Assembly (NCBI RefSeq): GCF_016026235.1
Contig: NZ_CP065613.1
Length of the DNA: 64,000 nt
Reading direction: 5' to 3' (one strand)
Source: Escherichia coli
GTDB taxonomy: Bacteria > Pseudomonadota > Gammaproteobacteria > Enterobacterales > Enterobacteriaceae
Notes under the pieces: generated by a model
The model's input: only the letters and a program-made list of their open reading frames with translations
What the model was told of the DNA's origin: nothing
Databases searched by the model: none
Shown here: positions 2,528 through 2,628 of the stretch, piece by piece
Layout: every line of letters begins with the position of its first letter
How positions within the stretch are numbered: the stretch's first letter is position 1
Translations under genes and position numbers: made by a program

Positions 2528-2628
2528 TGCCTGATGCGACGCTGCTGCGTCTTATCAGGCCTACAAAACCAAACCGTAGGTTGGATAAGGCGTTCACGCC
2601 GCATCCGACAAACAGCGCCTGATGCGAC
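2528..2628. repeat. REP/BIME cluster between cpsB and cpsG
   Basis: Tandem inverted REP-like units (GCCTGATGCGACGCT...CTTATCAGGCCTAC and GGATAAGGCGTTCACGCCGCATCC). Confidence 0.8.

Follow-up and report, generated by a model that had tools for sequence, protein, structure and literature searches.

The untranslated gap between cpsB and cpsG in the colanic-acid operon of E. coli carries a BIME-2-type REP array, composed of one 88-nt unit and a leftover half of a Z2-type REP. Comparison of strains shows this array, as judged from the alleles collected, to behave as an unstable, mobile-repeat-like insertion, found in 0 to 3 units together with deletion derivatives and a REP-free allele. The same comparison shows that the conserved feature of the gap is not the BIME but the algC RNA motif lying beside it. 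With a probability of about 0.6, we consider that the BIME would act as a mild, dispensable and copy-number-dependent modulator, tilting expression to the upstream genes mainly as a barrier to exonucleases.

Anatomy of the REP array between cpsB and cpsG

The analysed window is a 64,000-nt stretch of E. coli DNA (contig NZ_CP065613.1). In the part of it considered here all genes lie on the minus strand. The 478-AA open reading frame of cpsB (manC; mannose-1-phosphate guanylyltransferase) occupies 2631..4067, is recognized over its full length by NCBIfam NF012004 (1112 bits) and ends with a TAA stop codon at 2633-2631; WcaI and Gmm are encoded upstream of it. The downstream gene, cpsG (manB; phosphomannomutase), lies at 1068..2438 on the same strand (NCBIfam NF011943, 1051 bits) and begins with ATG at 2438-2436, both codons being read directly from the sequence. 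The gap left between the two genes is 192 nt long (2439-2630). A preliminary description had placed a REP/BIME cluster at 2528-2628 in this gap of the operon; the REP hallmarks and the flanking genes confirm it, and its range was off by 1-2 nt, the true extent being 2529-2630.

The array consists of three REP-derived parts separated by two short linkers. A Z2-type REP of 36 nt, GCCTGATGCGACGCTGCTGCGTCTTATCAGGCCTAC, lies at 2529..2564 on the plus strand, and a Y-type REP of 34 nt, GTCGGATGCGGCGTGAACGCCTTATCCAACCTAC in minus-strand reading, at 2576..2609 on the minus strand. Both were delimited by pattern matches, by alignment with further REPs from the window and by their predicted folds, as well as by alignment to the naRNA4/REP325 model, the former matching its Z2 half and the latter its Y half. 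The third part is the head half of a second Z2-type REP, the 13-nt GCCTGATGCGACG at 2617..2629 on the plus strand, recognized as a direct repeat, by a pattern match and in alignments. The tails of the two REPs are joined by an 11-nt linker, AAAACCAAACC (2565..2575), and the heads by a 7-nt linker reading AAACAGC on the plus strand (2610..2616). The 11-nt linker is too short for the long IHF-binding L motif of BIME-1. The individual motifs were mapped to 2597-2609 on the minus strand (GTCGGATGCGGCG), 2551-2564 (CTTATCAGGCCTAC) and 2576-2589 on the minus strand (CTTATCCAACCTAC), and both REP copies terminate in CCTAC.

Z2 REP, linker, inverted Y REP and linker together form one BIME-2-type repeat unit of 88 nt (2529..2616), as seen from the alignment, from the match spans in other genomes and from the gap of strain O104:H4, which follows an 88-nt register. 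The unit is marked by the direct repeat GCCTGATGCGACG, which occurs at 2529 (2529-2541) and, 88 nt further on, at 2617; in total, the window holds 1.15 copies. Read along the mRNA, the cpsB stop codon is followed by one base, past which the half Z2 (2629-2617) begins, and then by the 7-nt linker and the Y REP (2609-2576). The 11-nt linker, the oppositely oriented Z2 REP (2564-2529), an A-rich stretch of about 36 nt and the algC motif (2492-2443) come next.

Several observations identify these sequences as REPs. Within the 64 kb of the window, two REP half-motifs gave 9 and 12 matches, vs. 0.43 and 0.79 expected from shuffled sequences, none of which reached the observed counts. In 5,425 E. coli genomes the REP part of the query also matched other, unannotated loci, at a median of 7 places per genome. 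The elements are imperfect palindromes of about 34-36 nt with a GTAG/CTAC foot and many extragenic copies, as is characteristic of E. coli REPs. In the alignment with other REPs of the window, the Z2 class reads GCCTGATGCGACG...CTTATCAGGCCTAC vs. GCCGGATGCGGCG...CTTATCCGGCCTAC for the Y class, and the corresponding class patterns are GCCTGATGCGACG...ATCAGGCCTAC vs. GxCGGATGCGGCG...ATCCxxCCTAC. Both REPs could, moreover, be aligned to the REP325/naRNA4 covariance model, one to its Y half and the other to its Z2 half; with best scores of 36.0 and 33.6 bits, the gathering threshold of naRNA4 (Rfam RF02564; 59.5) was not reached, and this is the only related model in Rfam, which holds no REP family as such. 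The inverse orientation of Y and Z2, the short linkers free of an L motif and the strain-variable number of tandem units place the array in the BIME-2 class, an assignment made from these features. The feature tables of K-12 MG1655 (NC_000913.3) list only CDS at this gap, and also at wzc-wcaA, where REPs do exist; the missing annotation is therefore uninformative and was left out of the argument.

Further REPs occur in the window. A second cluster within the operon, with Y-type REPs in both orientations, occupies the wzc-wcaA gap (13007-13112), a place at which a REP was found in all strains studied by Iguchi et al. (2011, PMC3158064). A single Z2-type REP (19335-19371), a shorter Z-like element (26234-26258), a Y-type REP (51346-51379) and a multi-REP cluster (59110-59221) served as comparison sequences only. 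On the plus strand, Rfam models matched two SIB antitoxin RNAs (32100-32248, 149.5 bits; 33749-33881, 72.3 bits) and the CyaR sRNA (49438-49523, 100.7 bits), which fits the chromosomal surroundings of the colanic-acid cluster in E. coli.

Variation of the array and conservation of its neighbour

Among E. coli strains the cpsB-cpsG gap measures 104, 192, 280 or 368 nt, that is, it grows in steps of 88 nt. The shortest of these alleles, in K-12 MG1655, retains only the 13-nt half REP and no unit, whereas the window and its best match, EC50, have one unit (192 nt), JNEC-KY177 has two (280 nt) and the outbreak strain O104:H4 2011C-3493 has three near-identical ones (368 nt; positions 2001-2368 of locus L040). 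Two units are also present in Escherichia whittamii, with a gap of about 280 nt. Outside this series we found a REP-free allele, in which a 101-nt gap is filled with unrelated sequence, a 128-nt deletion allele with a truncated Y REP in ETEC4068 (L041, 301-428) and, in strain E69, an allele of 156 nt in which only the 3′ portion of the Y REP is left. Strain Z503 carries a 288-nt tandem duplication of the 3′ end of cpsB (L006, 552-839), which is annotated as a cupin pseudogene and has its junction inside the Y REP. A similarity break at the BIME of O104:H4 was a first impression only; reading of the sequence overturned it and revealed the third repeat unit in its place.

To estimate how common the alleles are, 60 of the 5,431 matching records, taken at even intervals along their ranking, were classified by match span, the query (2239-2830) covering 592 nt in a one-unit allele. 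Junction-specific allele queries were not used, because the search joins split matches into one place and the alleles are merged in its counts. The one-unit span of 592 was the most frequent (28/60). Two units (span 680) were seen in 6 records; in another 2, the match was confined to the cpsG side and its span exceeded that of the matched query portion by 88 nt, indicating at least two units, and the one of these that was read (O104:H4) has three. At least two units were thus present in 8 of the 60 records. K-12-like spans of 504 were found in 9, REP-free spans of about 500 in 5, and a span of 528, representing another allele, in 1; a single record was a plasmid. In the remaining 8 records (approximately 13% of the sample) the REP part alone was matched, at other loci, and megablast did not find the cpsB/cpsG flanks; in such genomes the colanic-acid locus may be divergent or missing.

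Coverage counts were in addition obtained for 5,426 complete E. coli genomes. At least 80% of a short query that requires at least one unit was covered in 3,019 of them (about 56%), and at least 80% of a longer query, for which a K-12-like allele is also sufficient, in 3,971, so that about 17% are K-12-like by the difference of the two counts. About 8% lack any REP at the gap. In roughly one genome in four the element is missing or reduced, and any effect it has is consequently not required.

Loss of a single unit lying between the 13-nt direct repeats gives exactly the K-12 form as its product. These repeats start at CC|TGAT, which resembles the type I cleavage site of TnpA-REP (iREP). Slippage or homologous recombination would yield the same product, so the product itself does not tell these routes of unit loss apart.

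The duplication in Z503 bears on a role at the DNA level, in which the array would be a gyrase site relieving supercoiling in this strongly inducible operon of about 20 kb, or a recombination hot spot by the O-antigen region. Binding of gyrase, Pol I and IHF by REPs and BIMEs is reported in PMC3333891, and REP positions coincide with recombination junctions around the O-antigen locus (Iguchi 2011, PMC3158064); the junction of the Z503 duplication lies inside the Y REP. However, strains devoid of the element carry the same operon, and the apparent break in O104:H4 is a third unit. We regard such a role as unlikely.

The same gap was inspected in other genera, whose loci were fetched through the conserved core of the algC motif (a plain 18-nt pattern; 32 stretches, including about 12 enterobacterial cps loci). 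Citrobacter sp. FP75, Trabulsiella odontotermitis, T. guamensis and 'Enterobacteriaceae bacterium 89' each have a single REP of their own sequence type, about 16 nt or less from the cpsB stop, and Lelliottia has a two-REP BIME at the equivalent position after cpsB. Two other Citrobacter species show a REP-like hairpin with CCTGATG repeats. In all, own-type REPs were seen in the cpsB-cpsG gaps of loci L007, L009, L021, L023, L027, L035 and L038 of other Enterobacteriaceae, and reading of the gap revealed no REP in Yokenella (L036) or in a second T. odontotermitis strain (L033). As genera have REP types of their own and some have none, the gap has been colonised repeatedly and is not always occupied.

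This polymorphism makes a neutral passenger the strongest rival of the modulator reading: the array would be a selfish or hitch-hiking repeat that settled in one of the operon's few permissive gaps, with no measurable effect on the expression of the colanic-acid genes. The presence/absence and copy-number differences, the deletion derivatives, the REP-free allele and the 13-nt remnant of K-12 are all consistent with it. The TnpA-REP (RAYT) model (PMC3333891) accounts for gain and loss of units, with which the start point of the direct repeats agrees, and the own REP types of other genera, together with their absence from Yokenella and one Trabulsiella strain, point the same way. Yet hairpins predicted at -13 to -21 kcal/mol would probably not be wholly without effect in a stretch that is transcribed, expression across the genome is biased to the upstream gene in tandem pairs separated by REPs, and independent colonisation by several genera fits selection as well as a permissive site. 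We hold this explanation to be a serious but clearly less probable one than modulation.

While the BIME varies, the algC RNA motif (Rfam RF02929), located at 2443..2492 on the minus strand, does not. Its cmscan score of 76.6 bits is well above the gathering score of 33.8, and it lies upstream of a phosphomannomutase gene; it is separate from the BIME and does not figure in the preliminary description. The motif comprises a small hairpin and then a conserved single-stranded stretch that leads into the cpsG ribosome-binding site, and it ends 4 nt before the ATG. No variation of it was seen among the E. coli alleles examined, it is present at every locus read from the other genera, and its conservation extends to Citrobacter, Trabulsiella, Lelliottia, Yokenella and Phytobacter. 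The arms of the hairpin vary and still pair (GGCCG/CGGUC, GGCUC/GAGUC, UCUCC/GGAGA and GGCUC/GAGCC), as inspected by eye, the loops differing in length and an ungapped alignment being therefore unfit for counting pairs. Downstream of the hairpin, the sequence UUGCCUGAAAAAGGGUAA, which includes the ribosome-binding site, is invariant, and the conserved stretch reads UUGCCUGAAAAAGGG. The conserved algC motif is a more likely seat of real cpsG regulation than the BIME. Our literature search on the motif found no paper.

Two further observations concern the motif. The sequence UCAGGCAAU (2526-2534), which follows the Z2 REP closely on its 3′ side in the mRNA, is complementary at 9/9 positions to AUUGCCUGA (2453-2461) within the algC motif, and in the predicted fold of the K-12 allele this pairing encloses the algC hairpin; it may have arisen by chance, as about 0.17 such pairs are estimated per 300 nt. 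A likeness to the head of Z-type REPs was also noted for the conserved UUGCCUGA.

Transcription, predicted RNA structure and the proposed role

Scanning of 2300-2800 detected no sigma-70-like promoter and, on either strand, no hairpin with a U-tract behind it, and an internal sigma-70 promoter and a classical intrinsic terminator were rejected on these grounds. RfaH suppresses Rho-dependent termination, and RfaH-modified polymerase resists Rho. The leader of the wza operon contains a JUMPstart element (Rfam RF01707, 57.3 bits; 17055-17093, minus strand) with the ops sequence GGCGGTAGCGTG, which predicts RfaH-dependent antitermination over the whole cluster. In strain CFT073, an RfaH ChIP signal has been recorded on wza-wcaM (PMC9765446). 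Given the shared strand, the lack of a promoter or terminator in the scanned region, the JUMPstart/ops leader and the RfaH signal, co-transcription of cpsB and cpsG is plausible.

In the predicted folds, the Y hairpin alone has a free energy of -13.2 kcal/mol and the Z2 hairpin of -21.1 kcal/mol (z = -5.5), and neither carries a U-tract. The whole junction RNA folds at -82.8 kcal/mol (z = -5.0), and z-scores over the region range from -3 to -5 vs. -1.1 for the K-12 gap. The most stable local fold predicted is a chimeric hairpin of -18.9 kcal/mol that joins the half Z2 to the 5′ arm of the Y REP, with 14 base pairs (stems of 10 and 4) starting at +1 after the stop codon. As this fold is preferred over the canonical Y hairpin, which starts 21 nt after the cpsB TAA, the structures adopted in vivo are uncertain.

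The closeness of this chimeric hairpin to the stop codon raises the possibility of a translational brake, by which stalled ribosomes would provoke tmRNA tagging and mRNA cleavage and so lower CpsB. A ribosome-stalling mechanism has been described for REPs less than 16 nt from a stop codon, according to PMC12306157, which cites Liang et al. (2015). The half Z2 lies 1 nt after the TAA, and the chimeric hairpin is predicted to start at the first base past it. The canonical Y hairpin, at 21 nt, is beyond the 15-nt limit, however, and the chimeric hairpin is a prediction only. We consider the brake improbable.

Stabilisation of mRNA or partial termination is the standard literature model for REPs, and the preliminary description had proposed one or the other for this BIME, as a source of differential expression of upstream and downstream genes; this proposal is plausible but generic. 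At REP325, the upstream yjdM transcript is stabilised and the downstream yjdN attenuated, partly in a Rho-dependent manner. For tandem gene pairs separated by REPs, the median log ratio of upstream to downstream expression is 0.96 vs. -0.09 in controls, with a large scatter. REP effects are at the same time reported to depend strongly on context, and mRNA half-life is reportedly not generally lengthened by terminal REPs.

That the array works mainly as a terminator or attenuator, uncoupling cpsG and the genes downstream from those upstream, seems to us very unlikely. Partial, partly Rho-dependent termination by BIMEs and by REP325 would allow it, as would the untranslated state of the 192-nt gap. 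Against this stand the lack of a hairpin with a U-tract in 2300-2800 and the Rho resistance predicted from the ops leader and from RfaH on wza-wcaM. Moreover, cpsG, wcaJ, wzxC and wcaKLM are needed for the same product as the upstream genes. As the operon binds RfaH and has an ops element ahead of its genes, any attenuation in it may be negligible, and since RfaH-modified polymerase resists Rho, the terminator part of any effect is probably small.

Our preferred reading remains modulation through an exonuclease barrier. The operon would be transcribed from the JUMPstart/ops leader, and the element in the transcript would fold into two stable hairpins lacking a U-tract. These hairpins would block 3′-to-5′ exonucleases and thereby protect the upstream mRNA, up to cpsB, and the amount of transcript reaching cpsG, wcaJ, wzxC and wcaKLM would possibly be slightly lowered. 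The net result would be a modest, upstream-biased expression that grows with the number of units. K-12, without the element, still makes colanic acid. An important role is weakened by the state of K-12, of the approximately 17% of genomes with the 13-nt half REP only and of the approximately 8% that are REP-free, next to others with 2-3 units, and the biological importance of the element is probably small. As K-12 keeps the 13-nt remnant alone, transcript maps of this strain are unable to test the effect on expression put forward in the preliminary description.

A bolder proposal would make the number of units, 0-3, a heritable and reversible dial that sets the balance of the upstream GDP-fucose/mannose genes vs. 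cpsG, wcaJ, wzxC and wcaKLM, and with it the output of colanic acid. We give it little credence. If it were true, selection for a hairpin beside the algC motif would explain why several genera have REPs of their own after the cpsB stop.

Comparison with known REP elements

The REPs of malE-malF and hisJ-hisQ are the classical intercistronic stabilisers, which shield the upstream mRNA from 3′ exonucleases. The cpsB-cpsG element resembles them in placing REP hairpins between co-transcribed genes. It differs in that they were tested by deletion, whereas the cpsB-cpsG element is naturally missing in many strains.

The arrangement is likewise similar to REP325/naRNA4 of the yjdM-yjdN operon, in which Y + Z2 units also separate two operon genes of equal orientation, and in which stabilisation upstream and attenuation downstream have been studied together by experiment. 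REP325, however, has six units, the head-to-head linker is 13 nt long in its model vs. 7 nt here, and it is the strand complementary to the cps mRNA that gives the best matches to the model in our window. BIME-2 elements are defined by y and z2 REPs, short linkers and tandem copies whose number varies by strain (Ton-Hoang 2012, PMC3333891). The element studied here shares with them the alternating orientation of Y and Z2, the short linkers, the lack of a long L motif and tandem units that vary between strains. It departs from them in its length of only 1.15 units in the window and in a Y copy that is off the consensus at 3 positions (GTCGG...CCAAC vs. GCCGG...CCGGC).

The closest precedent is the locus itself. 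Iguchi et al. (2011, PMC3158064) described REPs between cpsG and cpsB in O157 and further E. coli strains, with indels of REP fragments from strain to strain, along with similar REPs and indels at wcaA-wzc, wcaK-wzxC, hisI-wzz and yeeZ-hisL. Locus, class of element and strain indels all match those of the window, and strain-variable copy number is a property of BIME-2 elements; the REP array at cpsB-cpsG is therefore already known. That study treated the REPs as possible recombination points and gave neither Y/Z2 or BIME-2 classes nor a 0-3 unit series over thousands of genomes. Our analysis adds the explicit Y/Z2 assignment, the series of 0-3 units across a large genome set and the lack of the element in K-12. 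The natural series of 0, 1, 2 and 3 units, O104:H4 included, offers ready alleles for relating REP copy number to expression of the operon.
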